DNA of 64,000 bases from Deltaproteobacteria bacterium (lineage in GTDB: Bacteria > Desulfobacterota > DSM-4660 > Desulfatiglandales > HGW-15). Of the stretch, positions 2,976 through 19,951 are shown in pieces; the stretch's first letter is position 1, and every line of letters starts with the position of its first letter. Made by a program: the position numbers and the translations under genes. The notes below the pieces were generated by a model that saw only the letters and a program-made list of their open reading frames with translations, was not told where the DNA came from and did not search any database. The stretch covers positions 138 to 64,137 of the forward strand of contig JAFGGA010000160.1 of NCBI GenBank assembly GCA_016930835.1, in the 5' to 3' direction.

Positions 2976-4031
2976 ATGGTAAGAATAGGGGTACTTGGGG
3001 CGGGCAGGGTGGTCCAGAATAGATATCAGGATGTCTTTCAATCTGAATTGAAGGATGCTAAGGTCACAGTAATATGTGATAAAGTAAAAGAGCGTGCAGA
3101 AAAAGTTGCTGCTCAGCTTGGTGCCTTTCCGCTTTATGATAGCGATGAAATGATGAGGAGAAACGATTTTGATGTTCTATTAATAGCCACTGAGTCCGGA
3201 AATCATTATCTGCACACCCAACAAGCCCTTCAAGCAGGAAAACATGTTATTGTTGAAAAGCCGCCGGCCCTTATACCTGATGAAATAATGGAAAGCGAAA
3301 AATTGGCGTCGGAGAAAAATCTTATGTACGCAGTCATTTTCCAGAACAGGTTAAACCCAGCCATGCAGATTCTGAAAAATGAATTTAGTGGTGGTCGTTT
3401 CGGGAAAATGGTATTGGCAACAATTCGCCTCCGTTGGTGCAGATATCAAGACTACTATGAAGACGGATGGCACGGCACATGGAAAATGGATGGAGGTGTA
3501 ATCAATCAACAGGCGATTCACCATATCGATGCATTACAATGGGTGTGCGGGCTTGTTACTGATGTTAATTCACTTCAGAACAATGCGCTTAATATCTTAG
3601 AGGCAGAAGATACAACTGTCGCCACGGTAAAGTTCCAAAACGGCGCACTGGGTGTTATTGAAGCCACAACAGCCGCAAGGCCGGATGATTTTGAGGCCAG
3701 CATTTCAATCGTTGGGGAAAAAGGAATTGCCGTTATCGGTGGAATCGCATTGAATGAAATTCAAACGTGGCGGTTTGTAGAGGAAAGGCCGGATGACCAA
3801 ATGATTCCCAAAATGTATTCACAAGATGTACCCACGGGTTATGGGCTTTCACACGGCCCCCTACTCCAGGAAATCATCAACAGGATTGCTGCGGGCAGGA
3901 TCGATCCCCCAATCACTGGTAGTGATTCGATACCCACTGTTAGGCTGGTGCATGCCTTATACAAAAGCACGGAAATCGGCGGCTGGGTTAGGATGTCTGA
4001 CAATCCTATCTCGAGTCGCTTGGGAAAATAA
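2976..4031 (+). CDS. Gfo/Idh/MocA-family NAD(P)-dependent sugar oxidoreductase
   Basis: N-terminal Rossmann segment MVRIGVLGAGRV, the EKP motif (HVIVEKPPAL), and a C-terminal alpha/beta domain typical of the family. Confidence 0.85.
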   Translation: MVRIGVLGAGRVVQNRYQDVFQSELKDAKVTVICDKVKERAEKVAAQLGAFPLYDSDEMMRRNDFDVLLIATESGNHYLHTQQALQAGKHVIVEKPPALIPDEIMESEKLASEKNLMYAVIFQNRLNPAMQILKNEFSGGRFGKMVLATIRLRWCRYQDYYEDGWHGTWKMDGGVINQQAIHHIDALQWVCGLVTDVNSLQNNALNILEAEDTTVATVKFQNGALGVIEATTAARPDDFEASISIVGEKGIAVIGGIALNEIQTWRFVEERPDDQMIPKMYSQDVPTGYGLSHGPLLQEIINRIAAGRIDPPITGSDSIPTVRLVHALYKSTEIGGWVRMSDNPISSRLGK

Positions 4032-4067
4032 TAAGAATCAATAAGGAAAATCATTAGAGATGCGGAT

Positions 4068-5105
4068 ATGTTATCAGTACTGGAAACGATTGAGAATATA
4101 GACTTGGATTTGGATCAAACCGATTATTATGCCGCGATTCTAGGCGAGTCACCATCGAAGGGAGCCAAGTCGCCGTCTCTCTGGAACGGAGCCTTTGACG
4201 CCCTGGGTCTTTCAGCTATGATGCATCCTATGGACATCGTCCCGGAAAAACTTATGGCTGTGGTGGAATGCCTCCGAAAGGACAAACGTTTTATTGGCGG
4301 TGCTGTCACAATGCCCTACAAGATAAATATTCTGCCTTTCCTGGACAAGCTCGAACCTGAGGCTGAAATGATTGGTGCAGTAAATTGCATTTATCGAGAT
4401 GGTGAAAAGTTAATAGGGTCAAATACGGATGGTGCTGGAGCGATATGGAGTCTTGAGAAAGAGATTTATGGAGGTCTCAACGAAAAAACAGTTTTGCAAA
4501 TTGGGACAGGTGGTGCTGGTTTTGCGGTTGCATCCTACCTATCATCTGCTATCGGTCCCAGAGGGTGCCTGAAGCTTGCGAATCGGTCACATCAATCTAG
4601 GAAAAATTTAGCAGCTAAACTATACGGGAGATGTCGAATAGAGCAAGTCGAATGGCCGCTTTCATCGGACGACGTCAGGGATTTAGACATCTTGGTGAAT
4701 TGCACAAGCATTGGATTCAAAACACTAAGGGAAGACAGCAATGGCATTTTTAGTCTAAACTTTTATACACCTTTGGGTCCTGTAGATGATAGTGCCCGTG
4801 TAAAAAAAATAAAGGATGCTGAAAAAATCTACCTTAAATCGGCTTCTGATGCCATTAAAGCAAACATAGGCTATTCTTTCGAAATCCTCGCTTCTATGGA
4901 CAATCCCTTCATCTTTGATATTATTTATCAACCTCCACAGTCCATGCTCCTTTGCATGGCTGAACTCATAGGCTACAAAACACTAAATGGGGCTCCCATG
5001 AACTTAGAACAGGCGGTTATTGCCTTTAAAAAGGCTGTGTCGGCTTCGGGTTTATACGACATAGAAAACAATGAAGTTCGTGATATAATGCGAAAGATCT
5101 GGTAA
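4068..5105 (+). CDS. Shikimate/quinate dehydrogenase family (AroE-like) dehydrogenase
   Basis: Family blocks are recognisable: GGAVTMPYKINILPFLD (catalytic Lys), GAVNCIY, GSNTDGAG (catalytic Asp) and a glycine-rich NAD(P) site GTGGAGFAVA. Confidence 0.8.
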   Translation: MLSVLETIENIDLDLDQTDYYAAILGESPSKGAKSPSLWNGAFDALGLSAMMHPMDIVPEKLMAVVECLRKDKRFIGGAVTMPYKINILPFLDKLEPEAEMIGAVNCIYRDGEKLIGSNTDGAGAIWSLEKEIYGGLNEKTVLQIGTGGAGFAVASYLSSAIGPRGCLKLANRSHQSRKNLAAKLYGRCRIEQVEWPLSSDDVRDLDILVNCTSIGFKTLREDSNGIFSLNFYTPLGPVDDSARVKKIKDAEKIYLKSASDAIKANIGYSFEILASMDNPFIFDIIYQPPQSMLLCMAELIGYKTLNGAPMNLEQAVIAFKKAVSASGLYDIENNEVRDIMRKIW

Positions 5106-5153
5106 TATTCTTGAATTTTAAAGCATGTTCAAAATATAACCCAAAAGGGAGTT

Positions 5154-6077
5154 ATGGAAATGAAAGACATCTCACAAACCGACATACAGAATAATATTCC
5201 CCTGGTTACCAGAAGGGATTTTAAAAGAGAAATAAAGGCCGGTGAGGTCTATATCGGGGGGAATGAACTCGTGGTCATGGCGGGTCCGTGTACGATTGAA
5301 GGCAAAAAACAAATCATGGAAACAGCAAAGGCTGTAAGGGATGCCGGCGCGAAAATGATGAGGGGAGGTGTGTTCAAACCATTGACATTTCCTTATGGTG
5401 AACCATTGGGTCAACCAGATACGGACAGCAATGAACCGCCTCGTGATCGCATGAAAATATTAAATAAAAGGGATCTTTATCAGGTAGCTGAAAGACGTCT
5501 TGGCTATTTCAAGGAAGCAGGGGAAAAATTCGGTTTACCCATTATTTCGGAAATCATGTATGCAGACAGCCTGGATATGATGTCAGAATACGTGGACATG
5601 TTTCAGGTGGGATACAGGCATATGTTTAACATGGATCTGATAGAGGCATTGTCGAAAACAAAAAAGCCGATCATGATCAAACGCCATTATGGAGAGAGCT
5701 TACGCTCATTACTTGGTGTGGCTGAACATTTCGAGGCCAGGGGCAAACACAATTTCGTGTTTTGTGAAAGAGGTGTTGTTGCGCCACATACGCATAATAT
5801 AAACTCACGCGCTATACTTGATATTCAAGCGATTCCAGCGCTTAAAGAGTATGCCCCATCTGTTCCCGTGATTATTGATCCGAGTCACGCCACCTTTAAG
5901 CGGAGTTATGTTGCGGCCATGTCTCGTGCCGCCATTGCGGCAGGTGCCGATGGACTTCTTATTGAAGTCCATCCTGATCCTGAAAATGCCTGGATCGATC
6001 CTCTTCAGGCATTGGGATTTACGGATTTCAAAAAATTGATGAAAGATATTAGAGCGATACATGATGCTATCCGATAG
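5154..6077 (+). CDS. DAHP synthase type I-beta / KDO8P synthase-family PEP aldolase, divergent
   Basis: Contains VVMAGPCTIEG, GGVFKPLTFPYG (canonical KPRTSPYSFQG), VGYRHMFN (canonical IGARNMQN), CERG, IIDPSH and LLIEVHPDPE. The metal-ligand-like Cys/His/Glu positions are retained. A good SD (AAAAGGGAG) lies upstream. Confidence 0.8.
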   Translation: MEMKDISQTDIQNNIPLVTRRDFKREIKAGEVYIGGNELVVMAGPCTIEGKKQIMETAKAVRDAGAKMMRGGVFKPLTFPYGEPLGQPDTDSNEPPRDRMKILNKRDLYQVAERRLGYFKEAGEKFGLPIISEIMYADSLDMMSEYVDMFQVGYRHMFNMDLIEALSKTKKPIMIKRHYGESLRSLLGVAEHFEARGKHNFVFCERGVVAPHTHNINSRAILDIQAIPALKEYAPSVPVIIDPSHATFKRSYVAAMSRAAIAAGADGLLIEVHPDPENAWIDPLQALGFTDFKKLMKDIRAIHDAIR

Positions 6078-6201
6078 AGGAAACAACTTGTATCGCTCCG
6101 GAGTTTTGTACTAATTATCCGGCGGAATGTCAAACGCCTGTTACGATAATTTTTTAGCATTCTAGCCAATAGGGCTTTAGACACCTGAAATAGAGGGAAT
6201 A

Positions 6202-6948
6202 ATGAAAATATTGGCTGTTATTCCAGCGCGTGGGGGTTCAAAGGGCGTTCGCCTAAAGAATATAAGGATGTTGGGTGGCAAACCTCTTATATCCCATATT
6301 ATTGAGTCGGCGAAGCAATCCAAACACATTGACCGGATGATTCTATCGACCGAAGATGAAGATATCATGAAGATCGGACAACAAATGGGAGTCGATATTC
6401 CTTTTATAAGGCCTCTTGAACTAGCTTCAGACGATTCCCCGTTAATAGCCGTGGTTTTTCACGCCTACCAATATTTTAAAGAGCGTGATATTCATTATGA
6501 TGCAGTCCTTTCACTGCAGCCAACGAGTCCATTTCTAAAGCCCACAAGCATCGATAAAATGATTGAACTATGGAATGAAAGCGGTTGTGAAAGCGTTACG
6601 ACTATTTCAGAAATCACTACAGGACATCCATATATATCCAAGGAGTTGCTTCCAGGGAATATCATTAAAAATTTTTTTCCACTCCCGGATGGGTTCATTG
6701 TCGGTGCAAGGCAAAAACGTCCAAAGGTTTATTATTTAACCGGAGCAGCATATCTTCGAGATAAAAGACTTTTGGAAATTACTGAAAAAAAAGGGCATGC
6801 ATTGGGGACCGACGCTAGGGCTGTTGTCTTAGACGAATTGGAAGCCGTGGATATCAATAGCGAGTTCGAACTAAAGTTTGCAGAATTTTTAATAGGCTCA
6901 CAAAATATGGGAAAGACGGATATTTCGCTCAATGGAAAATCAATATAG
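6202..6948 (+). CDS. Acylneuraminate (CMP-ulosonic acid) cytidylyltransferase family protein
   Basis: N-terminal KILAVIPARGGSKGVRLKNI, LSTEDEDI and LQPTSPF blocks are typical of CMP-NeuAc/CMP-Kdo synthetase-like enzymes. Confidence 0.85.
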   Translation: MKILAVIPARGGSKGVRLKNIRMLGGKPLISHIIESAKQSKHIDRMILSTEDEDIMKIGQQMGVDIPFIRPLELASDDSPLIAVVFHAYQYFKERDIHYDAVLSLQPTSPFLKPTSIDKMIELWNESGCESVTTISEITTGHPYISKELLPGNIIKNFFPLPDGFIVGARQKRPKVYYLTGAAYLRDKRLLEITEKKGHALGTDARAVVLDELEAVDINSEFELKFAEFLIGSQNMGKTDISLNGKSI

Positions 6949-7531
6949 CAATCAAAAACGGCGCACTATCATCGAAATAGGGAGAAATGTTTTTCTCCCC
7001 AATGACGCAAAGATCACAGTCCCCAGATGTGTAATAGGGGATAATACGAGAATAAACGGACCTATTGTAATAAGAGGGCAAGAAGAATGTTTTATCGGTA
7101 AATATTCTGCTTTTGGATATCATATCACGATCATTACAACGAATCATGATATGACAAAAGCAAATCTACAAGTGAATATGCATCGACATTTTGGCTTCTC
7201 TAGTTTGGAAATTACGAAGGGGCCCGTGAACATTGGTAACAATGTTTGGATTGCGGATAATGTTACTATCTTATCCGGAGTAAACATCGGCGACGGTTGC
7301 GTTATTGGAGCTGGCGCTGTTGTCACTCATAATCTTCCGTCTTTTAGTGTTTCAATGGGGATGCCCGCCAAGATGACAAATTATAGATTCGACGAAAAAA
7401 TTATCGAGCAGCTCCTTGAAATAAAATGGTGGGATTGGCCTCCTAATAAAATCAGTAAGAACAAAGAGTTCTTTGAAACCGATCTTTCAAAATACAAGGG
7501 GCGTAGCTTATCCGATTTAATAACGGATTAG
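6932..7531 (+). CDS. Hexapeptide-repeat (LbH) acetyltransferase, Vat/CatB-like
   Basis: Left-handed beta-helix repeats (IGNNVWIADNVTILSGVNIGDGCVIGAGAVV) followed by the WWDWP motif (EIKWWDWPPNKI) typical of xenobiotic-type acetyltransferases. It overlaps the upstream gene by 17 nt. Confidence 0.85.
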   Translation: MENQYSNQKRRTIIEIGRNVFLPNDAKITVPRCVIGDNTRINGPIVIRGQEECFIGKYSAFGYHITIITTNHDMTKANLQVNMHRHFGFSSLEITKGPVNIGNNVWIADNVTILSGVNIGDGCVIGAGAVVTHNLPSFSVSMGMPAKMTNYRFDEKIIEQLLEIKWWDWPPNKISKNKEFFETDLSKYKGRSLSDLITD

Positions 7532-7544
7532 AATAGGGGTTTAA

Positions 7545-8915
7545 ATGACGTGCACGGCATCTATCATTATCAGGGCCTTAAATGAGGAAAAATGGATATC
7601 CTCCTGTCTTTCTGGGGTGTTTAGACAGGATTTCACGGATTTTGAGGTTATACTGGTTGATAATCAAAGTTCGGATCTGACGGTAGAGAAGGCCAAATCT
7701 TTTCCTATTGAAAAAGTTATTACAATTGCAGAATTCCTTCCCGGAAAGGCCCTTAATCTTGGAATCAATCATTCTAGAGGAGAATACATTATATGTCTTT
7801 CAGCACATTGCATACCTGTTAATTCGAAATGGCTTGGTACGCTTTTGAAAACAATACAGACTCACGACCATGTGGCTGGAGTTTATGGGCGACAAGAGCC
7901 TATGGCTTTTACCGATGATGTTGATAAGCGAGATCTGATTAACATCTTTGGTCTGGATCGAAAAATACAGGTGAAAGATCCATTTTTTCATAATGCAAAT
8001 AGTATAATCAAAAGAGATGTATGGGAAACAACACCCTTTTCTGAAACCACTACAAATATTGAAGATAGACTCTGGGCCAAAGAAGTCTTGGCAAAAGGAT
8101 TTCAGATTATCTATGAACCAGAAGCCAGTGTGTATCATTATCATGGAATCAATCAAGGCAGGAATATTCAAAGAGCCAGAAATGTTGTCCGCATTCTAGA
8201 AAAAATACATCCATCCTTTCGAGGTGAATATATTCACGATGATATGAAAATTACGGCCATCATTCCTGTCAGAGGCCAAGTGAAACGGATAAAGGGGATG
8301 TCATTACTAGAACTTACAATAGAATCTTTGAGGCATTCGAAATATATAAAAGATATAATTGTCGCAGCGGATAATGAAGAGCATATGAACATTGCTAGAT
8401 CCTTGAATGCGAGAGTTATCCGCAGACCTAATGATTTATCCTATGAATATATCGAAGTGATTAAAGTTTATCAATATGTCTTGGAAGCTTTGAAAGATGA
8501 AGGCAAATTACCAGATCTAATCGTTTTGGCTCAGGAAGTTTATCCTTTTAGGCCCAAAAAATTTTTCGACCGCATGATAAAAAGGCTGGTTAATTCAGAT
8601 CGGGATTGTGTAATTGCCGCTAAGCCGATCTATAAATCCATATGGAGAGGAGACGAAGATAACCTTATACGGGTAGATAACGGATTTATACCTTCAAAAT
8701 ATAAGGAGCCGTTATTCATGGCCCTTTATGGCCTGGGTTGCATTATGGAACCGAATATCATCCTACGGGGAGAAAAAATCGGGCAAAATGTGGGGCTAAT
8801 TACAATTGATGACCCGTATAGTTATCTAAGCGCTAATAATGGTGAATCAATGAAGATCATTGAACAGCTTTTACCGAGATGGCGAGAATATTTAGAAAGT
8901 GAGGAAAGAATCTAG
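7545..8915 (+). CDS. Fusion protein: N-terminal GT2 glycosyltransferase + C-terminal cytidylyltransferase-like domain
   Basis: aa 1-200 carry ASIIIRALNEEKWI, VILVDNQSSD and NIEDRLWAKE (GT-A/GT2). From about aa 234 (nt ~8244) come KITAIIPVRGQVKRIKG and IIVAADNEEH, which resemble a degenerate PARGGSKG / STDDEE of CTP_transf_3 enzymes. Confidence 0.7.
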   Translation: MTCTASIIIRALNEEKWISSCLSGVFRQDFTDFEVILVDNQSSDLTVEKAKSFPIEKVITIAEFLPGKALNLGINHSRGEYIICLSAHCIPVNSKWLGTLLKTIQTHDHVAGVYGRQEPMAFTDDVDKRDLINIFGLDRKIQVKDPFFHNANSIIKRDVWETTPFSETTTNIEDRLWAKEVLAKGFQIIYEPEASVYHYHGINQGRNIQRARNVVRILEKIHPSFRGEYIHDDMKITAIIPVRGQVKRIKGMSLLELTIESLRHSKYIKDIIVAADNEEHMNIARSLNARVIRRPNDLSYEYIEVIKVYQYVLEALKDEGKLPDLIVLAQEVYPFRPKKFFDRMIKRLVNSDRDCVIAAKPIYKSIWRGDEDNLIRVDNGFIPSKYKEPLFMALYGLGCIMEPNIILRGEKIGQNVGLITIDDPYSYLSANNGESMKIIEQLLPRWREYLESEERI

Positions 8916-8918
8916 CAT

Positions 8919-9890
8919 ATGAATATCAATGAAATAAAATCGAGACTCAAAGGGAATATTGTCCCAGTGCCCGCGCAATTCAATGAAGATTTGAGCATAA
9001 ACATCCCTGCTATCGAAATGCACGTAACTTTTTTAATTCAAAAAGGGATTCAATTCTTTTACCTTGCCGCATCCGCTTCACAATTTGATTACATGTCACG
9101 GGATGAAAGATTGTTAGTAACTAAAAGTGTTGCAGCCATCCTGCCCGGACATTGTATTCTCCTAGCCCAGTCGATGGGAGGACATTCTTTTGAAGAACAA
9201 TTAACAGAAGCGAAAATGATGATGGACCGCGGCGCGACAGCAATAGTTATTGCTCCAAGAGGAATAAAAGAGGGAAATAAATTTTTCAGCTCATTTTACG
9301 AACGAGGTTTCTACTCACCCGATCGGCATGATGATTATTTTATAGCCTATATGGAAAAAATGGCTGAAAAAAGCAACGCCCCTTTGGTATATCATAATAA
9401 ATCATTCTCAAATGGTCGCGGTCCCAGCATGGATATGCTTCACAGAATTGTTGCTATTGACAACGTTGTAGCCCTTAAAGAACATATTAGCGACCCTGGA
9501 TCGCTTCGAAAAGTGTATCGGGAGCTAGGTGACAAGGTTGTCTGTTTTGATGGATTTGGGAAGACGGTTCAGTTCTGGTCGATGCAGTGGGGGGCTAAAG
9601 CAAGGCATACTTGCTGGGCATGGTTTGATCCAGATCGAGAAATCAAATTTTTCACGCATATTGAAAATGGCAATTTAAATAACGCTGCTGAGATCGTAAA
9701 TGATGAATGGCCCATAGCGGAAGCAATAGCAAAAACTGGCTTTCAAGGATATTTGTATATTATGGAACTGATGGGTTTACCCTCAGGCCCTGTAAGGATC
9801 CCCGGCGAAAGGCTCAATGAGAGGCAGAAAGAAATGGTAAAAAACGCTGTGAATCGCATCGGACTTTTAAGAAATGAAAGTTTTGCATAA
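8919..9890 (+). CDS. DapA/NanA-family (class I, Schiff-base) aldolase-like protein, divergent
   Basis: The layout matches dihydrodipicolinate synthase / N-acetylneuraminate lyase. The N-terminal segment is VPVPAQFNEDLSINIPAIEMHVTFLIQKGIQFFYLAAS, and the candidate Schiff-base lysine is in VVALKEHISD. The canonical GTTGE block is degenerate (ASASQFDYMS). Confidence 0.55.
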   Translation: MNINEIKSRLKGNIVPVPAQFNEDLSINIPAIEMHVTFLIQKGIQFFYLAASASQFDYMSRDERLLVTKSVAAILPGHCILLAQSMGGHSFEEQLTEAKMMMDRGATAIVIAPRGIKEGNKFFSSFYERGFYSPDRHDDYFIAYMEKMAEKSNAPLVYHNKSFSNGRGPSMDMLHRIVAIDNVVALKEHISDPGSLRKVYRELGDKVVCFDGFGKTVQFWSMQWGAKARHTCWAWFDPDREIKFFTHIENGNLNNAAEIVNDEWPIAEAIAKTGFQGYLYIMELMGLPSGPVRIPGERLNERQKEMVKNAVNRIGLLRNESFA

Positions 9891-10936
9891 TGTCTGAGGT
9901 TTTATTTATTGAATCTCATAAAATTGGGCCTGAATGTAAAACGTTCATTATAGGGGAAATTGCCCAGGCACATGATGGCTCTTTAGGAACAGCACATGCC
10001 TATATAGACGCCATCGCAGATGCAGGCGCGGACGCTGTCAAATTTCAGACTCATTTTGCAGGTGAAGAATCAACAATTGATGAACCCTTCAGAGTCCGGT
10101 TCAGTCGACAGGATTCAAGCCGATATGATTATTGGAAGCGAATGGAATTTTCCGAGGAACAATGGGTTGGATTGGCAAACCATGCAAAAGAGCGGGGTAT
10201 CCTTTTTTTAAGTTCCGCTTTTTCAATAAAAGCTATTGAGTTATTACGTAAAATCGGCGTCCCTGCGTGGAAAGTGGCATCCGGCGAAATTGGATCCCAT
10301 ACATTATTGCGAGAAATGGCAAAAAGCGGTTCACCCATTCTATTAAGTACGGGGATGAGCGATTTTAATGAAATAGACAATGCAGTATCTCGCATAAAAG
10401 CGATGGGATTACCATTCGCGATATTCCAATGCACATCGAAATATCCCACGCGCTTTGAAGAAGTCGGGCTAAACATCATAGATGAATTAAGGGATCGATA
10501 TTGTTGCCCGGTCGGACTTTCAGATCATACGGGTAGCATATTCCCTGGCCTTGCCGCAATGGCTCGTAATGTTGATCTTTTGGAGATCCATGTTACTTTT
10601 GACAAACGCCTATTCGGTCCTGATATAAAGGCATCAGTTACCATTGATGAACTACGCACTTTAGTGGAGGCGAGTGAAGCCTTTCACAAAATGTTCGCCA
10701 ATCCGGTCGATAAAAACGCCATGTCTGCCAAGCTGACTGATACAAAGGCTATTTTTTCTAAAAGCATCGCGCCTTTAAGGCATTTAAAAAAAGGAACCAT
10801 ACTGGAATCCGATATGCTAAGCATGAAAAAACCTGGAACCGGTATTCCTCCAAACAAAATAGAAACAATAATTGGACGTCGATTAGCCCGTGATGTCGAT
10901 CCTGACAGGCTATTAGCATGGGAAGATATAGTATGA
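9890..10936 (+). CDS. neuB: N-acetylneuraminate (nonulosonic acid) synthase, NeuB family
   Basis: Contains FIIGEIAQAHDGSLGTAHAYIDAIADAGADAVKFQTH and LSDHT, plus a C-terminal SAF-like domain (MKKPGTGIPP). Its start overlaps the upstream stop (TAATG). Confidence 0.9.
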   Translation: MSEVLFIESHKIGPECKTFIIGEIAQAHDGSLGTAHAYIDAIADAGADAVKFQTHFAGEESTIDEPFRVRFSRQDSSRYDYWKRMEFSEEQWVGLANHAKERGILFLSSAFSIKAIELLRKIGVPAWKVASGEIGSHTLLREMAKSGSPILLSTGMSDFNEIDNAVSRIKAMGLPFAIFQCTSKYPTRFEEVGLNIIDELRDRYCCPVGLSDHTGSIFPGLAAMARNVDLLEIHVTFDKRLFGPDIKASVTIDELRTLVEASEAFHKMFANPVDKNAMSAKLTDTKAIFSKSIAPLRHLKKGTILESDMLSMKKPGTGIPPNKIETIIGRRLARDVDPDRLLAWEDIV

Positions 10937-12105
10937 AAAATAAAGATAAGCGTCGAATTTGTGTGGTTGTTAACAGTCGAGCCAATTATGGTAGAATCAA
11001 ATCCGTTTTATTAGCTGTGAGGGAACAAGAGAATCTGACTTTACAAATCATTGTTGGTGCTTCGGCCCTTTTGCACCGCTTTGGAGAGGTCGATAAAATT
11101 ATCCTTAGAGATGGATTCACCCCTAACGCCACCGTATACTCTATCCTTGAAGGTGAAACCCCTACAACAATGGCTAAATCAACCGGCATGGCCATTATGG
11201 AATTGTCAACTCTTTTTGAGAATCTGAAACCGGATATCGTTATCACCGTTGCGGATCGTTTCGAGACAATGGCCACCGCCATTGCCGCCAGCTATATGAA
11301 TATTTGCCTTGCGCACACGCAGGGAGGGGAAGTAACAGGATCCATTGATGAGAGTGTCCGGCATGCCGTAACAAAACTCTCGCACCTTCATTTTACCGCG
11401 ACCGAACGTGCGACAGAGTATGTCATTCGGATGGGGGAGGACCCTGAAACGGTTTTTTTCACCGGCTGCCCTGCGATTGATCTTGTTGCAAAGTTAGATT
11501 TAACCCTGCCTCAAGATATTTTTATACGTTATATGGGAGTTGGTCCCGCTTTGGATCCTGACAAACCCTATCTGGTTGTACTTCAGCATCCTGTAACCAC
11601 TGAATACGGAAGAGGTTTTGCCCAGATTAACGAATCTCTTCGTGCCATTGCATCTATTAAAATGCAAACGGTCTGGCTATGGCCTAACGTAGACGCTGGT
11701 TCGGATGAGGTATCCAAAGGTTTGCGGATGTTTAGGGAAAAACATAATCCTGGCTACATCCACTTCTATCGCAATTTCAGTCCTGAAGATTACGGCAGAC
11801 TCATCTATAACTCGGCATGTCTGGTTGGGAATTCCAGTTCTGCTTTGCGCGAGGGAAGCTATCTAGGTGTCCCCGCAGTTAATATCGGCACTCGGCAATT
11901 GGGAAGAGAAAACGGCGAAAATGTGATGCACGTGGACCACGATGCCAAAGCTATAGAAAAGGCCATAAAAAAACAGCTTGATAGGGGAAGATATAGGAGT
12001 TCTTCGCTTTTCGGTGATGGCCATGCTGGGGAAAAAATCGCTAAGATTCTGTCTGAAACGGAAATATCCATTCAAAAAAAATTATATTATATCCATACAA
12101 CATGA
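10933..12105 (+). CDS. neuC: UDP-N-acetylglucosamine 2-epimerase (hydrolysing), NeuC family
   Basis: Contains RRICVVVNSRANYGRIKSVL, DRFETMATAIAASYMNICLAHTQGGEVTGSIDESVRHAVTKLSHLHF and GNSSSALREGSYLGVPAVNIG. I prefer the ATG at 10933 (ATGA overlap with the neuB stop) to the track start at 10918. Confidence 0.9.
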   Translation: MKNKDKRRICVVVNSRANYGRIKSVLLAVREQENLTLQIIVGASALLHRFGEVDKIILRDGFTPNATVYSILEGETPTTMAKSTGMAIMELSTLFENLKPDIVITVADRFETMATAIAASYMNICLAHTQGGEVTGSIDESVRHAVTKLSHLHFTATERATEYVIRMGEDPETVFFTGCPAIDLVAKLDLTLPQDIFIRYMGVGPALDPDKPYLVVLQHPVTTEYGRGFAQINESLRAIASIKMQTVWLWPNVDAGSDEVSKGLRMFREKHNPGYIHFYRNFSPEDYGRLIYNSACLVGNSSSALREGSYLGVPAVNIGTRQLGRENGENVMHVDHDAKAIEKAIKKQLDRGRYRSSSLFGDGHAGEKIAKILSETEISIQKKLYYIHTT

Positions 12106-13004
12106 AAAAATATTTTGAAAATTGCGAAATCTGCGGATCTTCTGAATGGCGGATTGTTTTTGAGGGAAAAATCCGTGAGGGGGCTTTTGGCTGTTTGACC
12201 GAAGATAGCTGTATCATTGCCAAATGCGCTTATTGCAAGGTTGAACGGCTGAATGAGTCGGCGTGCAAGGATGAAAGCTTTTATAAAAATAAAGACTACA
12301 GACAATTATTAAACGAGCCTGATGATGCGCTTGGATTTCTTGTTGAACATGATATTATACAACTCAGGAATCTTTCCGCGCTATGGCCGGATTCTATTAG
12401 GAATAAATGTATCGCCGATATTGGATGTGCCGCGGGCAGTTTTTTGGATCATGTCTCATCTCTTGCGAGTCAGGTAATAGCGATCGAACCTTGTGAAGAA
12501 TATCATGACTACCTGAAAAGGAGAGATTGTGCCGTTTATTCATCCATAGAGAGTGCCCTTCCCGAATGGAAGGAAAAGGTCGAATACGCCTTTTGTTTCA
12601 GTGTCATTGAACATGTCTTAAATCCACTTTCCTTTCTGTCCTCGATCAGGGCGCTAATGAAACCCGGCGGAAGACTTATCATAAGCACGCCCAATGTTGA
12701 AGATATCCTGATGGATCTAAAAGGAGATGAATATCGACGCTTCTTCTACCGCGTGGTGCATAGATATTATTTCGGGCGGGATTCCTTTGAATACTGCGTG
12801 AGAAAGGCGGGTTTTTCAGTAGTCGAATCAAAATGCGTTCATCGATTCGGACTTTCTAATGCCATGGCATGGCTTCGGGATGGCCGGCCAACAGGCGATA
12901 AACCACTTGAACATCTCGATAGCCCCATGCTGGACCAATTTTGGAAAGGCTATCTGGAATCTATTGGTTCAGCTGATTATCTCTATTTCAAACTGGAAAA
13001 ATAA
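12102..13004 (+). CDS. Class I SAM-dependent methyltransferase with N-terminal zinc-ribbon
   Basis: N-terminal CEICGSSEW...CAYCKV pairs of cysteines and the SAM motif I IADIGCAAGSF. ATGA overlap with neuC. Confidence 0.8.
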   Translation: MKKYFENCEICGSSEWRIVFEGKIREGAFGCLTEDSCIIAKCAYCKVERLNESACKDESFYKNKDYRQLLNEPDDALGFLVEHDIIQLRNLSALWPDSIRNKCIADIGCAAGSFLDHVSSLASQVIAIEPCEEYHDYLKRRDCAVYSSIESALPEWKEKVEYAFCFSVIEHVLNPLSFLSSIRALMKPGGRLIISTPNVEDILMDLKGDEYRRFFYRVVHRYYFGRDSFEYCVRKAGFSVVESKCVHRFGLSNAMAWLRDGRPTGDKPLEHLDSPMLDQFWKGYLESIGSADYLYFKLEK

Positions 13005-13019
13005 TTAAAGCATTTTGGT

Positions 13020-13961
13020 ATGAAAAAAATCATCTACCTGGGAGCGGATGTTGGTTTCAAAGCCCTGGAACAAGAACTCCTTGGGAAAAAAGCCATCGCC
13101 ATACACGTTGACGCAATCCGGGAAGCGGTTGCGACTTCCCTTCGGGATGCGGATGCACTTCTTGATGCCTCCATGAAGATACGGATCACCAATGACATGA
13201 TCCGAAAAGCCGAAAAGCTGCAGATGATCTCTTGTGCTACAACAGGCTCCGACCACTTGGAGAGAGAAGAGATTGAAAAGCGCTTAATTCCGGTTCGAAC
13301 ATTAAAAGAGGACCGGGAATTACTAATGGGCCTCACCCCCGCTGCTGAACTTTCATGGGCTCTTCTAATGGCTTGTACGCGCAAATTACCTTCGGCCATT
13401 GATCATGTGAAAAAGGGTAAGTGGTCCCGTGAACTATTTCCAGGAATCATGCTGAAAGGGAAGCGTTTAGGAATAATAGGCTGTGGCCGAATCGGAGGAT
13501 GGATGGGGCGATATGCCAAGGCATTCGGAATGGATGTGGCCGGATATGACCCTTATATTGATCCATTTCCTGAGAATTTTATCCGCTTAAAGCTCCCGAA
13601 ACTTTTTAAAACAAGCAACTTCATCTCTGTTCATGTTCACCTTACAGATGAAACCAGAGGGCTTGTTTCGCGGAAATTATTGGAAAGTGCGGAAAATTGC
13701 GCCGTCTTCGTCAATACATCCAGAGGCGCGGTGGTTGACGAATCCGCACTTCTGGACTGTCTGAAGAAAGGGACAATAGGTGCGGCAGGATTAGATGTCC
13801 TTGATGGAGAACCCGAGATTGATCATCATCCTCTGGTGGAGTATGCCAGAAAGAATGACAATCTGATTATTACGCCGCATTGTGGTGGATTTAGTCCTGA
13901 TGCGGTAGCTCTTGTCTGCGCCGAGGCAGCCAAAAAAATAATCAAACAACTGGGCATATGA
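13020..13961 (+). CDS. D-isomer-specific 2-hydroxyacid dehydrogenase family protein
   Basis: NAD site GIIGCGRIGG, SVHVHLTDETRGL, the catalytic-region block NTSRGAVVDE, and ITPHCGG. Confidence 0.85.
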   Translation: MKKIIYLGADVGFKALEQELLGKKAIAIHVDAIREAVATSLRDADALLDASMKIRITNDMIRKAEKLQMISCATTGSDHLEREEIEKRLIPVRTLKEDRELLMGLTPAAELSWALLMACTRKLPSAIDHVKKGKWSRELFPGIMLKGKRLGIIGCGRIGGWMGRYAKAFGMDVAGYDPYIDPFPENFIRLKLPKLFKTSNFISVHVHLTDETRGLVSRKLLESAENCAVFVNTSRGAVVDESALLDCLKKGTIGAAGLDVLDGEPEIDHHPLVEYARKNDNLIITPHCGGFSPDAVALVCAEAAKKIIKQLGI

Positions 13962-15532
13962 ACATGGCGGATATCGAGACCCTTGCCGAGTCAATCAAAG
14001 CAAGGGGTGTTACGCACGTATTTGGGATACCGGGCAGCGGGCCAAGCCTGACCCTTCTCGATTCACTTGAAAAAAAAGGAATTCCTTTCTACCTGAATCA
14101 TTTCGAGGGTGCGGGGGTGCTAATGGCAGGTGCCATGGGAAGACTAAGCGGAAAGGCCGGCGTTGCGGTGGGGATCAAAGGACCCGGTCTGGCAAACATG
14201 CTGCCGGGAATAGCTGCTTGCAGGTTGGAGAATTTTCCTGTTGTCTCGCTTTCCGAAGCCTATCCACCCGACACCCCTTCACATACATCTCACAAGCGGC
14301 TTGATCATCAGGCCCTCATAGCTGGTGGAGCCAAGGGAAGGCGATTTTTCTCCTTAAAGGGCCCCAACTTTACTGATCTGGCAGTATGGGCTGAAGAAGA
14401 GGTACCCGGACCTGTTCATATGGATTTCTCAGCATCGCCGATTCCGTCGGATATGCCGATCCCCGGAAATAAACATGGAAAAATATCATCCGGTCCAGAT
14501 AGCCAAAAAATTTTTGATATCGTCTCTAACAGCCATAGACCCATCATTATCGCCGGGACCTGTGCCATAAGAAAAAAAATGGCCCCGGCGCTTAACAGCC
14601 TTGCCGTTCCATCCTTTAGCGTTGCGGCAGCCAAAGGCATTATTGACGAAACACTTCCACATGCGGCCGGAATCTTTACAGGAGTAGGAGGAGAATTCAC
14701 ACCAGAATTTTCAATTATACCGATGGCGGACTTGATAATCGGAATCGGGCTTAGGCACAATGAGGTCTTGAATGTAAAACCCTTTGGATGTAAATCCATC
14801 AATCTGGATCCTCTGGGTGATGAACTGGGTTATGGGTTCGAGTTTGATCATGTATTTTCCCTCGAAGCAGGAGATGTGGAAAGTCTTCTGGCCGGTTTGC
14901 GATGCAAATCCTGGGGTCTCACGGAACTCTCGGATCAAATCCGGAATATCAGGAGGCACATGCTTCGAGATTCTTTCATGCCTGCAAATGTATTTCGTAG
15001 GGTCGAAAAGTATTTCGACCATCAACTTAGGATTGTCCTGGACACTGGCCATTTTTGTACGATTGGAGAACATGTCTTCCGGATCCGGAAGCCGGAACAT
15101 TACCTCTCCGCGGGACAGGGACGATATATGGGCATCGGCCTACCATTATCCATCGGTGCGTCATTGTATGATCCGGATATACCCACGGTTCTCTTTTCAG
15201 GTGATGGGGGGATCGGGATGTTTATTTCAGAAGTAAAGCTTGCAGCCCAATTTGAGGTTCCCCTCATCATCATCCTGATGAGCGACGGATACCTGGGCTC
15301 TATTAGAGCAAGTTCCATATCGAACCGAATGACCGAAAGGCCCGTCACAATCCTTCAACCCTCATGGTACAGGGTTTTTCAAGCGATGGATATCCACTCC
15401 ATGATTGCGAAATCGGAAAACGACCTTGAAGAAATCTTAAATAGTTGGAGGATGGAAAGAGGCCCTTTGTTTATTGAGACCCGTTTTGATCCGGAAGCAT
15501 ACCAACATATGGTGGACGGGATTCGTCCATAA
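13958..15532 (+). CDS. Thiamine-pyrophosphate-dependent enzyme (acetolactate synthase-like fold)
   Basis: N-terminal GVTHVFGIPGSG and EGAGVLMAGAMGR. The C-terminal TPP-binding block is FSGDGGIGMFISEVKLAAQFEVPLIIILMSDGYLG. ATGA overlap with the upstream gene. Confidence 0.85.
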   Translation: MNMADIETLAESIKARGVTHVFGIPGSGPSLTLLDSLEKKGIPFYLNHFEGAGVLMAGAMGRLSGKAGVAVGIKGPGLANMLPGIAACRLENFPVVSLSEAYPPDTPSHTSHKRLDHQALIAGGAKGRRFFSLKGPNFTDLAVWAEEEVPGPVHMDFSASPIPSDMPIPGNKHGKISSGPDSQKIFDIVSNSHRPIIIAGTCAIRKKMAPALNSLAVPSFSVAAAKGIIDETLPHAAGIFTGVGGEFTPEFSIIPMADLIIGIGLRHNEVLNVKPFGCKSINLDPLGDELGYGFEFDHVFSLEAGDVESLLAGLRCKSWGLTELSDQIRNIRRHMLRDSFMPANVFRRVEKYFDHQLRIVLDTGHFCTIGEHVFRIRKPEHYLSAGQGRYMGIGLPLSIGASLYDPDIPTVLFSGDGGIGMFISEVKLAAQFEVPLIIILMSDGYLGSIRASSISNRMTERPVTILQPSWYRVFQAMDIHSMIAKSENDLEEILNSWRMERGPLFIETRFDPEAYQHMVDGIRP

Positions 15533-15557
15533 AACTTTCTGGATAAGGGAAATTAAA

Positions 15558-16568
15558 ATGACTGAAAAACATATTCTAATACTTGGCACCGGAAGCGCTG
15601 GGCAAAGGCACGCGAAAAATTTCTATTCTCTTGGTTGCAGGATTTCCTGTATGGATCCTCGTGCCGATAAGCTTGACAATTTAAGAAAGGAGATACCCGT
15701 GGAAGGGGTGTTTACGAGTCTCGAAGAAGCCTTGGATCATCCGGAATGTTTGGATGGGGTTGCCGTCACCTCCCCGCCCGTCTTTCACGTGAATCAGTGT
15801 ATTGCCGCCCTGCAGCGTAAACTTCCCGTGATGCTTGAAAAACCGGTATCACCCGATTTAGAAAGCGCCAAGAGGCTGCGGTCTGTTGTGAATTCAAGCG
15901 ACGTCCCGCTCCTTTTAGGGTATACATACAGATGGTGGCCTCCACTGGAAAAGGTAAAGGAATTATTGTCCGATAATATCATCGGGAAGCTTAGACATGT
16001 GAGTTTTGTGATGTCCGCTCATCTAGCAGATTGGCATCCCTGGGAAAATTACTGGGATTTTTTTATGGCCAGCAAGCGTCTTGGTGGTGGGGCGCTTTTA
16101 GATGAAAGCCACTGGGTTGATCTGATGCTCTGGTTCATGGGGAAACCGGACACGATTTCAGCGCGAATAGACAAAATCAGCGATCTGAAGATCGACACGG
16201 ATGATAATGTGGATATAATCATCAATTATAATAACGGTCCAGGCGTGATCATGCATCTTGACTTATATGGCCGGCCCCATCAAAAAAATATCAGGTTTAT
16301 TGGTGAAAAAGGGACCATCCTTTGGACCATCGATCCCAACCAGGTGGCAGTAGGGAAGGAAATGGAAGAAAAATGGGATATCTATAAATACGACTGTGAA
16401 AGAAATGAGATGTTTTTAAGGGTTGACCGAGAATTTATCGAAGTGCTGAACGGATCCCCCGTGAAGACATGCACAATTAATGATGGCATAGAGGTGTTGT
16501 CCATTGTAGAAGCCGCGCGGATTAGTAATGCTGAAGGGCGTGTGATTCAAATACGGAAGCAGGATTAA
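15558..16568 (+). CDS. Gfo/Idh/MocA-family oxidoreductase
   Basis: The Rossmann start is MTEKHILILGTGSAGQRHA, with an EKP motif (VMLEKPVSP). The start is set at ATG 15558; the track ORF start at 15474 lies inside the upstream TPP gene. Confidence 0.8.
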   Translation: MTEKHILILGTGSAGQRHAKNFYSLGCRISCMDPRADKLDNLRKEIPVEGVFTSLEEALDHPECLDGVAVTSPPVFHVNQCIAALQRKLPVMLEKPVSPDLESAKRLRSVVNSSDVPLLLGYTYRWWPPLEKVKELLSDNIIGKLRHVSFVMSAHLADWHPWENYWDFFMASKRLGGGALLDESHWVDLMLWFMGKPDTISARIDKISDLKIDTDDNVDIIINYNNGPGVIMHLDLYGRPHQKNIRFIGEKGTILWTIDPNQVAVGKEMEEKWDIYKYDCERNEMFLRVDREFIEVLNGSPVKTCTINDGIEVLSIVEAARISNAEGRVIQIRKQD

Positions 16569-16570
16569 AA

Positions 16571-17293
16571 ATGTCTTATCATGGATTCACTGTCCTTGCG
16601 GTAGTCCCTGCCCGGGGAGGCAGCAAGGGCATTCCCAGAAAAAATCTTCAAAAAATCAACAATATCAGCCTGGTAGGGAGAGCTGCAAAAATAGCCGTAT
16701 CCATTCCGTGGATCGATCGTGCCATTCTGTCCACGGATGATGCTGAAATCGCGGACGAAGGCCTGAGATATGGCCTGGATGTCCCATTCATGCGCCCTCC
16801 GGAGCTCGCCGGAGATCTTTCCTCATCGGTGGAAATGTGGAAACATGCATGGTTAAAATCCGAAGAGCATTACGATATGAAATTCGATGTTTCCATCTTG
16901 CTTGAACCAACCAGCCCTTTACGTAGAAAAGAAGATGTTGAAAAGACGATGTCAGCCTTGATGGATGGTGATCACTTCGCCGCGGCAACTGTCAGTAAAA
17001 CACCCGCTCATTTCACCCCTCATAAATGTTTGACTATAAATTATCAGGGATACATTGGTTTTTATTTAGAGCAAGGCGACCAATTCAGTATTCGACAAAA
17101 AATCCCGACTTACTATTTTCGAAATGGTGTATGTTATGCCGTAAAAAGGAAAGCGCTTGTAGAGAAAGGACACATTCTTGAAGAATCTTGCATCGCTGTT
17201 TTACTAGACCGACCTTTGGTAAATATTGATGAACCTTTTGATCTCGAGTTGGCGAAATTTCTTATTAAACGTGAAAAATCTTTCTCAAGCTGA
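16571..17293 (+). CDS. Acylneuraminate cytidylyltransferase (CMP-nonulosonic acid synthetase, NeuA-like)
   Basis: Contains FTVLAVVPARGGSKGIPRKNL, LSTDDAEIA and LLEPTSPLRR. Confidence 0.9.
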   Translation: MSYHGFTVLAVVPARGGSKGIPRKNLQKINNISLVGRAAKIAVSIPWIDRAILSTDDAEIADEGLRYGLDVPFMRPPELAGDLSSSVEMWKHAWLKSEEHYDMKFDVSILLEPTSPLRRKEDVEKTMSALMDGDHFAAATVSKTPAHFTPHKCLTINYQGYIGFYLEQGDQFSIRQKIPTYYFRNGVCYAVKRKALVEKGHILEESCIAVLLDRPLVNIDEPFDLELAKFLIKREKSFSS

Positions 17294-17404
17294 TAACTTT
17301 TTCCCATCCCAATCAAGTTAGCTTAAGTAATCAATCACTTAGTGAAGTTTTTGGATGAACCCTTAAGTGTCGGAGTTTGCTAAAACAGAGGAGTTTATGG
17401 ACTG

Positions 17405-18817: not shown

Positions 18818-18891
18818 GGTAAGGAATAATGGAAAAGAATGGCTTATGAAAAGGAAATGATTATGAAACAGATAATAGGATATCATTTTTT

Positions 18892-19881: not shown

Positions 19882-19951
19882 TTCTCATAATCGGTCAGTC
19901 ATATAATACACATAACAAACCTTATATACAGATTATCTCGCGGTTGTAAAA

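Follow-up and report, generated by a model that had tools for sequence, protein, structure and literature searches.

A gene cassette with a DAHPS-like aldolase in a glycan locus of Desulfobacterota and a proposed route to a CMP-activated ulosonic acid

Genes of the locus

The window analysed here is a stretch of 64,000 nucleotides from a metagenome-assembled genome (MAG) of Desulfobacterota ("Deltaproteobacteria"; GenBank assembly GCA_016930835.1, contig JAFGGA010000160.1). The genes at 2976-17293 are predicted to be part of a lipopolysaccharide (LPS) outer-core/O-antigen locus. They include a cassette with an aldolase similar to 3-deoxy-7-phosphoheptulonate synthase (DAHPS), followed by a module of NeuB and NeuC type. 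From position 6 to position 27757 every open reading frame (ORF) listed lies on the + strand, and no gap between them exceeds about 125 nt. The genes were assigned by Pfam and NCBIfam profile searches, and NCBIfam equivalog cut-offs were used for function. The ORF listing and these searches confirm the families of aldolases and cytidylyltransferases named in a preliminary description of the same DNA, as well as those of the accompanying dehydrogenases (AroE-like at 4068, Gfo/Idh/MocA at 2976 and 15558). The genes of the cassette, and a further cytidylyltransferase gene that is compared with them, are the following (PEP, phosphoenolpyruvate; CMP, cytidine monophosphate; UDP, uridine diphosphate; KDO8PS, 3-deoxy-D-manno-octulosonate 8-phosphate synthase; DHDPS, dihydrodipicolinate synthase; NAL, N-acetylneuraminate lyase; GT2, glycosyltransferase family 2).

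2976-4031, + strand: Gfo/Idh/MocA oxidoreductase (Gfo1; Pfam), proposed to oxidise C3 of a (UDP-)hexuronic acid
4068-5105, + strand: reductase of the shikimate dehydrogenase family (AroE-like; Shikimate_dh_N, 65.7 bits), proposed to re-reduce the keto sugar
5154-6077, + strand: PEP aldolase of the DAHPS/KDO8PS family (DAHP_synth_1, 163.6 bits), a distinct subfamily with KPLTFPYG and a 26-residue insertion
6202-6948, + strand: candidate CMP-ulosonate synthetase CT1, motifs intact (CTP_transf_3, 89 bits)
6932-7531, + strand: hexapeptide-repeat acetyltransferase (Vat/WbbJ/WcaF-like; Pfam/NCBIfam), accessory of the extended cassette, probable O-acetylase
7545-8915, + strand: fusion of a GT-A domain (GT2-like, about 7545-8240) and a degenerate domain of the cytidylyltransferase fold (about 8244-8915) (Pfam, AlphaFold)
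8919-9890, + strand: divergent protein of the DHDPS/NAL family (DHDPS, 72.9 bits), accessory of the cassette
16571-17293, + strand: candidate CMP-nonulosonate synthetase CT3, motifs intact (CTP_transf_3, 57 bits)

The DAHPS-like aldolase

The aldolase gene probably starts at 5160: the public gene call, of 305 amino acids, begins two codons downstream of the annotated start, with a conserved MKDIS N-terminus. The protein is about 40% identical to type I-beta DAHPS and matches 4GRS and 1ZCO with 191-194 bits. In the alignment to these two structures it retains the metal ligands (Cys, His, Glu and Asp) and the PEP-binding Lys and Arg, and the motifs CPC..., DPSH and EVHPxPxxAxxD are conserved.

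The difference lies in the binding of the second substrate. In classical enzymes the Arg and Thr of the KPR(T/S) motif hold the phosphate of erythrose-4-phosphate, as seen in the structures from E. coli, T. maritima and P. furiosus; KANRS is the equivalent in KDO8PS. In the DAHPS-like protein KPRT is replaced by KPLTF, and the FQG loop by an acidic insertion of 26 residues. In a single pattern scan of 185,579 species genomes, KPLTFPY(G/N) together with the insertion was found in all 30 members of the subfamily, and KPR(T/S)SPY..FQG in all 54 classical enzymes. KPLTFPY is present in 119 of the best 120 database homologues, none of which contains KPR[TS]. In the tree the members of the subfamily group in a single compact clade, with 58-100% identity, which a long branch separates from classical DAHPS.

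One explanation to be considered is that 4068-6077 are ordinary aroE and aroF genes that happen to sit in this cluster. It agrees with the public annotation of the aldolase, '3-deoxy-7-phosphoheptulonate synthase', and with the fact that the AroE homologues from the candidate phyla radiation (CPR) pass the aroE cut-off. However, both proteins of the window score under all equivalog cut-offs. For the aldolase these are 244.9 against 267.75 (DAHP_synth_Bsub, TIGR01361) and 277.2 against 335 (NF006421) for DAHPS, and 102.3 against 242 (NF003543) for KDO8PS, where the PDB matches are at most 69 bits; for the AroE-like protein, 134.5 against 200.2 (TIGR00507). Moreover, the invariant arginine of the phosphate site is gone and the FQG loop is replaced, a cytidylyltransferase is almost always linked, the cassette occurs in CPR genomes, and its neighbourhood, described below, is that of glycan loci. 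Ordinary aroE and aroF genes are thus scarcely conceivable here, in agreement with the initial view of these two genes. By its motifs and scores the aldolase gene is not aroF, and its product is predicted to be a PEP- and metal-dependent aldolase without a phosphate site. We propose that it is the synthase of a new ulosonic acid. To our knowledge, all known ulosonic acids are made by synthases of KdsA or NeuB type. The DAHPS-like enzyme is probably a third lineage, which arose from the enzyme that opens aromatic biosynthesis and was retooled for an unphosphorylated substrate.

Distribution of the cassette

The DAHPS-like subfamily was found in about 27 species-level genomes from at least eight phyla, with 58-81% identity. 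The carriers are Desulfobacterota, Omnitrophota, Elusimicrobia, Dehalococcoidia, Myxococcota, Sulfurovum, Victivallales and CPR lineages (Parcubacteria, Saccharibacteria, Uhrbacteria, Staskawiczbacteria). Two are cultured, Desulfatibacillum aliphaticivorans and Desulfovibrio mangrovi, both from Desulfobacterota. Nearly every locus with the DAHPS-like gene also contains a stand-alone CTP_transf_3 gene and the fusion of GT2 and cytidylyltransferase domains, and thus the co-occurrence of these three genes is conserved.

The 29 related loci are all glycan loci, and aromatic-pathway families are absent from the 25 commonest Pfam families among their 127 neighbouring ORFs. The census yielded methyltransferases, B12-radical-SAM enzymes, Wzx flippases, glycosyltransferases and Wzy. 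No phosphatase was found in the conserved core of the cassette in the related loci compared. The cassette adjoins NeuB modules in the window and in the loci L014, L016 and L087; the carriers with this arrangement include Desulfovibrio mangrovi, Sulfurovum and a Desulfocapsaceae MAG.

These data suggest that the cassette (2976-8915, extended to 9890) is a conserved, horizontally mobile unit. With high confidence it is predicted to be a glycan-sugar cassette distinct from aroF/aroE. Literature searches on it found nothing that describes it. In a SugarBase preprint, CMP-linked keto acids of higher carbon number are reported from Magnetospirillum as unassigned, without a link to the cassette genes.

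Cytidylyltransferases and the fusion protein

The motifs of the cytidylyltransferases were aligned with E. coli KdsB and N. meningitidis NeuA. The motifs IPARGGSKGVRLKN, LQPTSP and D-I-N of CT1 align with R12/K21, Q104 and D209/D211 of NeuA. CT3 has VPARGGSKGIPRKN, LEPTSP and N-I-D. Thus both proteins have the full PARGGSKGxxxKN P-loop, the (Q/E)PTSP loop and the acidic pair, and are predicted to be catalytically intact. Both score under the cut-off of the PseF model (114.5 for CT1 and 111.9 for CT3 against 205.7).

The protein encoded at 7545-8915 has two Pfam domains, Glycos_transf_2 at residues 6-159 (88.5 bits) and CTP_transf_3 at residues 247-362 (30 bits). The latter thus begins near nucleotide 8250, close to the estimate of about 8244 made at the outset. 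In the AlphaFold (AF2) model, with a mean predicted local distance difference test (pLDDT) of 84.4, a GT-A domain is followed by a complete fold of the CMP-nonulosonate synthetases. The C-terminal domain has a template modelling (TM) score of about 0.8 to the CMP-Neu5Ac, CMP-Kdn and CMP-Pse synthetases 6IFD, 9T4Z and 9FTC, and the N-terminal domain matches GT2 enzymes. In the fused cytidylyltransferase domain a deletion of eight residues takes out the GSKGxxxKN P-loop, QPTSP is changed to QEVYP, and the acidic DxD pair is absent. Neither the 20 orthologues aligned nor any of 120 homologues from the database has the P-loop. Since the catalytic motifs are missing, this is likely to be a pseudo-enzyme domain, and the locus has two activating enzymes, not three. 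The preliminary description had counted three cytidylyltransferase domains; this is correct for fold and family, but the fused one lacks the catalytic residues.

The same data bear on the possibility that three independent pairs of an aldolase and a cytidylyltransferase make three CMP-ulosonic acids, as had been proposed from the gene order. Indeed, three genes of aldolase families and three CTP_transf_3 matches are present and adjacent. However, not only is the fused domain degenerate, but the fusion accompanies the DAHPS-like gene also in loci without the DHDPS-like gene that would be its partner. In addition, the DHDPS-like family (44 proteins) was not seen outside the cassette among the members that could be placed. 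Three pairs are therefore very improbable. The broader claim, that the locus makes more than one CMP-activated ulosonic acid, very probably holds: there are two intact cytidylyltransferases, one for a NeuB/NeuC route and one for the DAHPS-like gene.

The GT2 domain of the fusion is unusual as well. The DXD motif, which in GT2 enzymes binds metal and diphosphate, is replaced by S(A/G)H in 117 of 120 homologues, together with other invariant His and Cys residues, and YGRQEP, DKRD, FFHNAN, NIEDR and YHxHG are invariant motifs. The family is large, with 3,746 matches at E <= 1e-20. The proposed role of the fusion is that of a UDP-sugar hydrolase or of a dedicated transferase.

The fusion and a cytidylyltransferase were also found in three loci with neither a DAHPS-like nor a NeuB gene, on a JGI metagenome contig, in Planctomycetes and in Nitrospirae (L084, 553-9341; L086, 4226-9374; L085, 7278-10723). 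The content of these loci includes Gfo/Idh/MocA and Ldh_2 dehydrogenases, a homologue of the YhcH-type N-acetylneuraminate anomerase, a protein similar to ketol-acid reductoisomerase (KARI), a short-chain dehydrogenase/reductase (SDR), 2-hydroxyacid dehydrogenases and several B12-radical-SAM enzymes. This arrangement looks like a second uncharacterised acid-sugar cassette.

Upstream genes and their alternatives

Three types of genes precede the aldolase. The first, Gfo/Idh/MocA followed by the AroE-like gene, is present in 15 loci including the window. The second consists of a xylose-isomerase-like TIM barrel and a KduI/IolB cupin, and was found in eight or nine loci other than the window. Its two proteins score just under the cut-offs for the 5-keto-L-gluconate epimerase IolO (296.9 against 300) and the 5-deoxy-glucuronate isomerase IolB (191.8 against 205). 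The third, in four CPR loci, comprises a truncated protein similar to nucleotide-sugar 6-dehydrogenases, a GalE/TviC-like SDR, AroE and a Gfo enzyme. The three types interleave in the aldolase tree. Thus it is likely that the upstream genes were exchanged around an essentially unchanged aldolase, and the first two types would yield the same product.

The best PDB matches of Gfo1, over its full length, are 3Q2K (213.6 bits) and 3Q2I (193.5 bits), followed by the glucuronide-3-dehydrogenase 8TDI (82.9 bits). In the 15 loci of the first type the AroE-like gene is immediately preceded by an orthologue of Gfo1 (56-74% identity). The AroE-like protein was compared with E. coli AroE. It retains the catalytic Lys (GGAVTMPYK) and Asp (NTDGAG), the GxGGxG motif (as GTGGAG) and the Gln. 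Ser14 and Asn59 (E. coli numbering) are both replaced by Ala, and about 50 residues are inserted; all these changes are conserved in the orthologues. In E. coli AroE, Ser14/Ser16 and Asn59 are residues that bind shikimate. The AroE family includes a reductase of a free keto sugar, the 5-ketofructose reductase 7COK.

The AroE, IolG, IolB and IolO-like families are best known from the metabolism of cyclitols and sugar acids. One could therefore suggest that the cassette makes a small molecule or a lipid head group, such as a cyclitol- or shikimate-like carboxylate or a CMP-activated hydroxy or keto acid, and merely resides within envelope loci. The abundance of B12-radical-SAM enzymes, 2-hydroxyacid dehydrogenases and KARI-like proteins in the aldolase-free fusion loci is in line with this. 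On the other hand, neither dehydroquinate synthase nor another cyclase is present, the cytidylyltransferase belongs to the ulosonate-specific family and has intact motifs, and the cassette is consistently found among Wzx/Wzy, glycosyltransferases, sugar O-methyltransferases of NanM type and BFO_1060-type transferases. We regard a small-molecule product as improbable.

The DHDPS-like gene and the acetyltransferase

The protein encoded at 8919-9890 keeps the Schiff-base lysine (ALKEH, aligned to K165 of NanA and to the lysine of M. jannaschii DapA), as do 43 of 44 homologues. The catalytic tyrosine of YN(I/V)P is replaced by a conserved His (HD/HN-K), the carboxylate-binding motif GxTGE (GSTGE) by SAS(E/Q)F, and there is an insertion of 17 residues. 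Catabolic NanA, which would have spoken against the initial interpretation, was considered and rejected: the score is far below the nanA cut-off (26.3 against 382), and the catalytic tyrosine is gone. The dapA score is equally far from its cut-off (23.5 against 206).

At E <= 1e-10, only the 44 homologues were found in 5.8 billion proteins. All those that could be placed belong to a DAHPS-like cassette. The hexapeptide acetyltransferase is usually there as well, and the two genes co-occur in L001, L006, L014, L016 and L087. Thus the DHDPS-like gene is an accessory of the cassette rather than the head of a third pathway. Its product is proposed to be a Schiff-base enzyme that acts on a 2-keto acid as an optional tailoring step. 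As it could form a Schiff base on such an acid, C4 epimerisation by a retro-aldol reaction, or dehydration, is conceivable.

The proposed route

The run 2976-17293 may encode two separate routes to CMP-activated 2-ulosonic acids, a NeuB/NeuC route and one in which a C3-epimerised hexuronic acid is condensed with PEP. We consider the chances of this interpretation to be about even. In the second route Gfo1 would oxidise C3 of a (UDP-)hexuronic acid, and the AroE-like reductase would give the hydride back on the other face, so that the net product is the C3-epimerised uronic acid. Elsewhere an IolB-like aldose-ketose isomerase and an IolO-like ketose 3-epimerase would do the same job on the free sugar. 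The GT2-like domain of the fusion, by elimination, would then free the aldose from the nucleotide, similar to PseG and NeuC, or alternatively serve as a dedicated transferase. The DAHPS-like aldolase would join the unphosphorylated uronic acid to PEP, producing a nine-carbon 3-deoxy-non-2-ulosaric acid, and CT1, with its intact motifs, would make the CMP-sugar. The degenerate domain of the fusion would be non-catalytic and may dock onto the active cytidylyltransferase, whereas the hexapeptide acetyltransferase and the DHDPS-like enzyme would perform optional tailoring. We infer the identity of the product from these assignments. It could be the 5-acetamido form if the precursor is an N-acetylhexosaminuronic acid, and confidence in its exact stereochemistry is low. 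Such a nine-carbon dicarboxylic acid would be in effect a sialic-acid-like sugar with a second carboxylate.

Several features point to a uronic acid. Firstly, the best solved relatives of Gfo1 are 3Q2K and 3Q2I, presumably the UDP-GlcNAcA 3-dehydrogenase WlbA, and the next is a glucuronide-3-dehydrogenase. Secondly, the IolO/IolB-like pair suggests a non-redox inversion of C3 in a free uronic acid by the sequence isomerase, 3-epimerase, isomerase. Thirdly, the CPR variant adds enzymes similar to 6-dehydrogenases and 4-epimerases, which would correspond to steps in the making of UDP-uronic acids. Finally, a hexuronate is close to erythrose-4-phosphate in length, and its carboxylate carbon would take the position of the phosphorus. 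The choice of the reductase would also be explained: the ketone of a 3-keto-hexuronate is two ring atoms away from the carbon that bears the carboxylate, as in 3-dehydroquinate and 3-dehydroshikimate, which makes an AroE-family reductase a natural partner. A Gfo oxidase and a separate reductase, ElaA and ElaC, have been described to act together as an epimerase (PMC13656337), which is a precedent for the pair of Gfo1 and the AroE-like protein. If tailoring occurs on a UDP-sugar, a hydrolase is needed, as in the pathways with PseG and NeuC, and no gene of the core other than the fusion, with its GT-A domain, is a candidate for it.

A product such as 3-deoxy-D-lyxo-heptulosaric acid (Dha) or 3-deoxy-D-arabino-heptulosonic acid (DAH) was considered and rejected. 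The aldolase would need erythrose-4-phosphate or a tetruronate as substrate, while its phosphate-binding arginine is gone and the upstream enzymes point to hexuronates.

A number of observations weigh against the hexuronate route. The identity of the aldose is read from family resemblance. The structures 3Q2K and 3Q2I, presumably WlbA, are labelled in the database only 'oxidoreductase' or 'dehydrogenase'. Loss of the arginine together with gain of an acidic loop is unexpected for binding of a carboxylate. No UDP-glucose or UDP-GlcNAc 6-dehydrogenase was found in the window. The fusion could be a transferase, which would leave the core without a hydrolase; it adjoins stand-alone cytidylyltransferases also in loci that lack the DAHPS-like gene (L084-L086), and thus its role is not tied to this aldolase. 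The CPR homologues of AroE (L013, 8080-8973; also L019, L020 and L022) have canonical scores (TIGR00507, 214.9 against the cut-off of 200.2) and do not have the insertion of about 50 residues seen in the window. Finally, we know of no report of a nonulosaric acid in any glycan, and literature searches for 'ulosaric' sugars returned only plant and algal Dha and synthetic work.

A different order of events with the same cassette was also considered. The aldolase may use another unphosphorylated aldose, neutral or amino, with the Gfo and AroE-like enzymes epimerising a ring hydroxyl, for example at C4, of the ulosonic acid or its CMP ester, and with the fusion as a CMP-sugar transferase. The pyranose of a 3-deoxy-2-ulosonic acid would be a close ring-oxygen analogue of quinate, the type of substrate used by the AroE family. 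ElaA (Gfo) and ElaC (reductase) do epimerise a CMP-nonulosonate, CMP-legionaminic acid (PMC13656337). The absence of DXD from the GT2 domain, with S(A/G)H in its place, fits a metal-independent CMP-sugar enzyme; the fusion always adjoins a cytidylyltransferase, even where there is no aldolase, and one aldolase-free fusion locus contains the homologue of the YhcH-type sialate anomerase. However, the IolO/IolB-like pair, which replaces Gfo and the AroE-like protein, needs a hydroxyl beside the carbonyl of keto- or aldo-uronates and cannot epimerise a 3-deoxy-2-ulosonate. Gfo1 is much nearer to C3 dehydrogenases of uronic sugars (213 bits, if the top matches are WlbA) than to generic members of the family, and the source of the free aldose is left unexplained. 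Thus epimerisation after condensation seems to us unlikely.

If the hexuronate route is correct, one may tentatively go further and suggest a new class of surface sugars, 3-deoxy-non-2-ulosaric acids made by a DAHPS-derived enzyme, activated by CMP and spread horizontally over at least eight phyla including CPR with their reduced genomes, with the fusion as a new type of hydrolase or CMP-sugar transferase. This extended proposal is rather doubtful. Since the cassette is small and two of its carriers are cultured, it is directly testable by mass spectrometry of CMP-sugars.

The NeuB/NeuC route

The second half of the run, together with the gene that follows it, contains the genes of a conventional route.

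9890-10936, + strand: NeuB-family nonulosonate synthase (Pfam NeuB, 211.7 bits, and SAF)
10918-12105, + strand: hydrolysing UDP-GlcNAc 2-epimerase of NeuC type (TIGR03568, 377.7 bits, cut-off 235.9)
12102-13004, + strand: S-adenosylmethionine (SAM) methyltransferase (Pfam/NCBIfam)
13020-13961, + strand: D-2-hydroxyacid dehydrogenase, similar to phosphoglycerate dehydrogenase (PGDH) (Pfam/NCBIfam)
13958-15532, + strand: acetolactate-synthase-like thiamine pyrophosphate (TPP) enzyme, 524 amino acids (Pfam/NCBIfam)
15558-16568, + strand: second Gfo/Idh/MocA oxidoreductase (Gfo2; Pfam/NCBIfam), longest ORF from 15474, directly upstream of CT3
17405-18817, + strand: 'surface carbohydrate biosynthesis protein' (TIGR04396, 405.2 bits, cut-off 125; BFO_1060_trans, 95 bits), probable nonulosonate transferase

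The NeuB protein scores higher with TIGR03569 (298.7, under the cut-off of 399.65) than with PseI (207), which favours the NeuB/LegI type. NeuC would free a ManNAc-type aldose from a UDP-sugar, NeuB would condense it with PEP, CT3, which we assign to this product, would activate the latter, and the TIGR04396 protein would probably transfer it. The preliminary description had stated that the window contains neither a 4,6-dehydratase nor an aminotransferase. In fact, a GDP-mannose 4,6-dehydratase gene, gmd, was overlooked (22055-23185; 611 bits, cut-off 415). It is not of PseB/LegB type, so the statement holds for dehydratases of the pseudaminic (Pse) and legionaminic (Leg) acid pathways, and no aminotransferase was found among the scanned ORFs of the window. 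As genes of Pse/Leg type are missing from the window, a product of Neu5Ac type is the simplest reading of this route.

The genes at 12102-15532 are probably tailoring or side-chain genes. The genes at 12102-16568 may serve to build an acyl group or a side chain, or may lead to a 2-keto sugar acid without an aldolase. It is unusual for a NeuB module to contain a TPP carboligase or decarboxylase. An IolD-like function of the TPP enzyme was rejected, as no IolD model occurs in the best 25 of 50 NCBIfam matches. The pairing of a 2-hydroxyacid dehydrogenase with CTP_transf_3 recurs in L001, L010 and L084. The longest ORF of Gfo2 begins at a TTG inside the TPP gene, and therefore the ATG at 15558 is the more plausible start. 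Gfo2 followed by CT3 mirrors the order of ElaA and ElaB. However, Gfo2 has generic PDB similarity only, and thus an ElaA-like role would be an analogy of gene order alone.

Surroundings of the cassette

Two further genes precede the cassette.

6-1718, + strand: MsbA-like ABC exporter (Pfam ABC_tran, ABC_membrane), first gene of the co-directional run
1712-2896, + strand: soluble protein of 394 amino acids with no recognised domain, candidate transferase

Homologues of the exporter lie upstream of the cassette in L001, L010, L014, L023, L026, L027, L029 and L088. For the second protein, searches of Pfam, NCBIfam and PDB gave no match, no transmembrane segments were predicted, and a single-sequence AF2 model was unusable (pLDDT 35). 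It has no significant similarity to the TIGR04396 protein. Its homologues (24-56% identity) adjoin the cassette in L001, L004, L010, L014 and L029.

The type of the locus is indicated by Pfam and NCBIfam matches around the run: two MsbA-like ABC exporters, a Wzy_C ligase, GT9, LptF/G, a WecA-like transferase, gmd and a GDP-sugar epimerase/reductase. In the glycan region (4001-20000) the G+C content is 0.36-0.48, lower than among the housekeeping and efflux genes of the window, where it reaches up to 0.55. The low value would fit surface-polysaccharide genes gained by horizontal transfer.

The gene that follows the putative nonulosonate transferase and precedes a methyltransferase codes for a protein of 329 amino acids without a family (18892-19881; sub-threshold DUF4915 only). 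A '23S rRNA-intervening sequence protein' of 113 amino acids (23256-23597; PF05635, 132 bits) is encoded within the glycan run, between gmd and the next epimerase gene. In a stretch of higher G+C content, 56357-61332, an SNF2-family helicase, a NOV_C-domain protein and a Schlafen AlbA_2/HATPase_c_4/Fic-like_C protein are found together. This stretch resembles a defence or mobile island and would have no relation to the glycan locus.

Comparison with known systems

Ulosonic acids such as 3-deoxy-D-manno-octulosonic acid (Kdo) and the sialic, pseudaminic and legionaminic acids are key to bacterial surfaces, to recognition by phages and the immune system, and to glycoengineering. A DAHPS-derived synthase, if confirmed, would enlarge the range of known CMP-sugar chemistry, and thousands of genes that now bear the wrong names '3-deoxy-7-phosphoheptulonate synthase', 'shikimate dehydrogenase' and 'glycosyltransferase family 2' would find an explanation. 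Owing to these wrong names, too much capacity for aromatic amino-acid synthesis is predicted in MAGs, notably those of CPR and Omnitrophota, and automated reconstructions would wrongly credit the CPR carriers with steps of the shikimate pathway.

The route with the DAHPS-like gene is not one of the described Neu, Leg, Pse, Kdo or Kdn routes, as had been supposed from the start. The aldolase shares the TIM-barrel family and the metal and PEP sites with type I-beta DAHPS (AroF/AroG; P. furiosus 1ZCO, T. maritima 1RZM) and with KDO8PS. It differs from them in the invariant Leu in place of the phosphate-binding Arg of KPRT/KANRS, in the Phe in place of the next Ser, and in the acidic insertion of 26 residues in place of FQG. 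It has no regulatory domain, and the partner of its gene, within glycan loci, is a cytidylyltransferase gene and never an aromatic-pathway or kds gene.

The proposed logic is that of the Neu, Pse and Leg pathways, namely tailoring of a nucleotide-activated sugar, release of the aldose, condensation with PEP and activation by CTP, with a cytidylyltransferase of the same family. However, the condensing enzyme is derived from DAHPS, not NeuB, the tailoring enzymes are Gfo and AroE-like or IolB/IolO-like, 4,6-dehydratase and aminotransferase are absent, and the part of the hydrolase would fall to a GT-A domain that is joined to an inactive cytidylyltransferase.

Oxidation of C3 in a UDP-hexuronic acid would be the same chemistry as in the WlbA/WbpB step of UDP-ManNAc3NAcA synthesis, the likeness being through 3Q2K and 3Q2I, presumably WlbA. 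In contrast to that pathway, no WlbC/WbpE aminotransferase follows, and in place of the amination an AroE-family enzyme would reduce the keto sugar again.

ElaA, ElaB and ElaC catalyse 8-epimerisation of CMP-legionaminic acid in A. baumannii KL49 (PMC13656337). There too, a Gfo/Idh/MocA oxidase and a separate stereo-inverting reductase adjoin a CMP-synthetase. On the other hand, the Ela reductase is an SDR and not AroE-like, the substrate is a CMP-nonulosonate, and Gfo1 is not specifically similar to ElaA.

The alternative upstream pair of eight related loci comes close to the equivalog cut-offs of both Thermotoga IolO and Bacillus IolB. However, it is located beside the aldolase in biosynthetic glycan loci and not in catabolic inositol operons.

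Thus condensation with PEP followed by activation with CMP is known, whereas the lineage of the condensing enzyme, the tailoring enzymes, the fusion of GT-A with a pseudo-cytidylyltransferase and the likely substrate are new.

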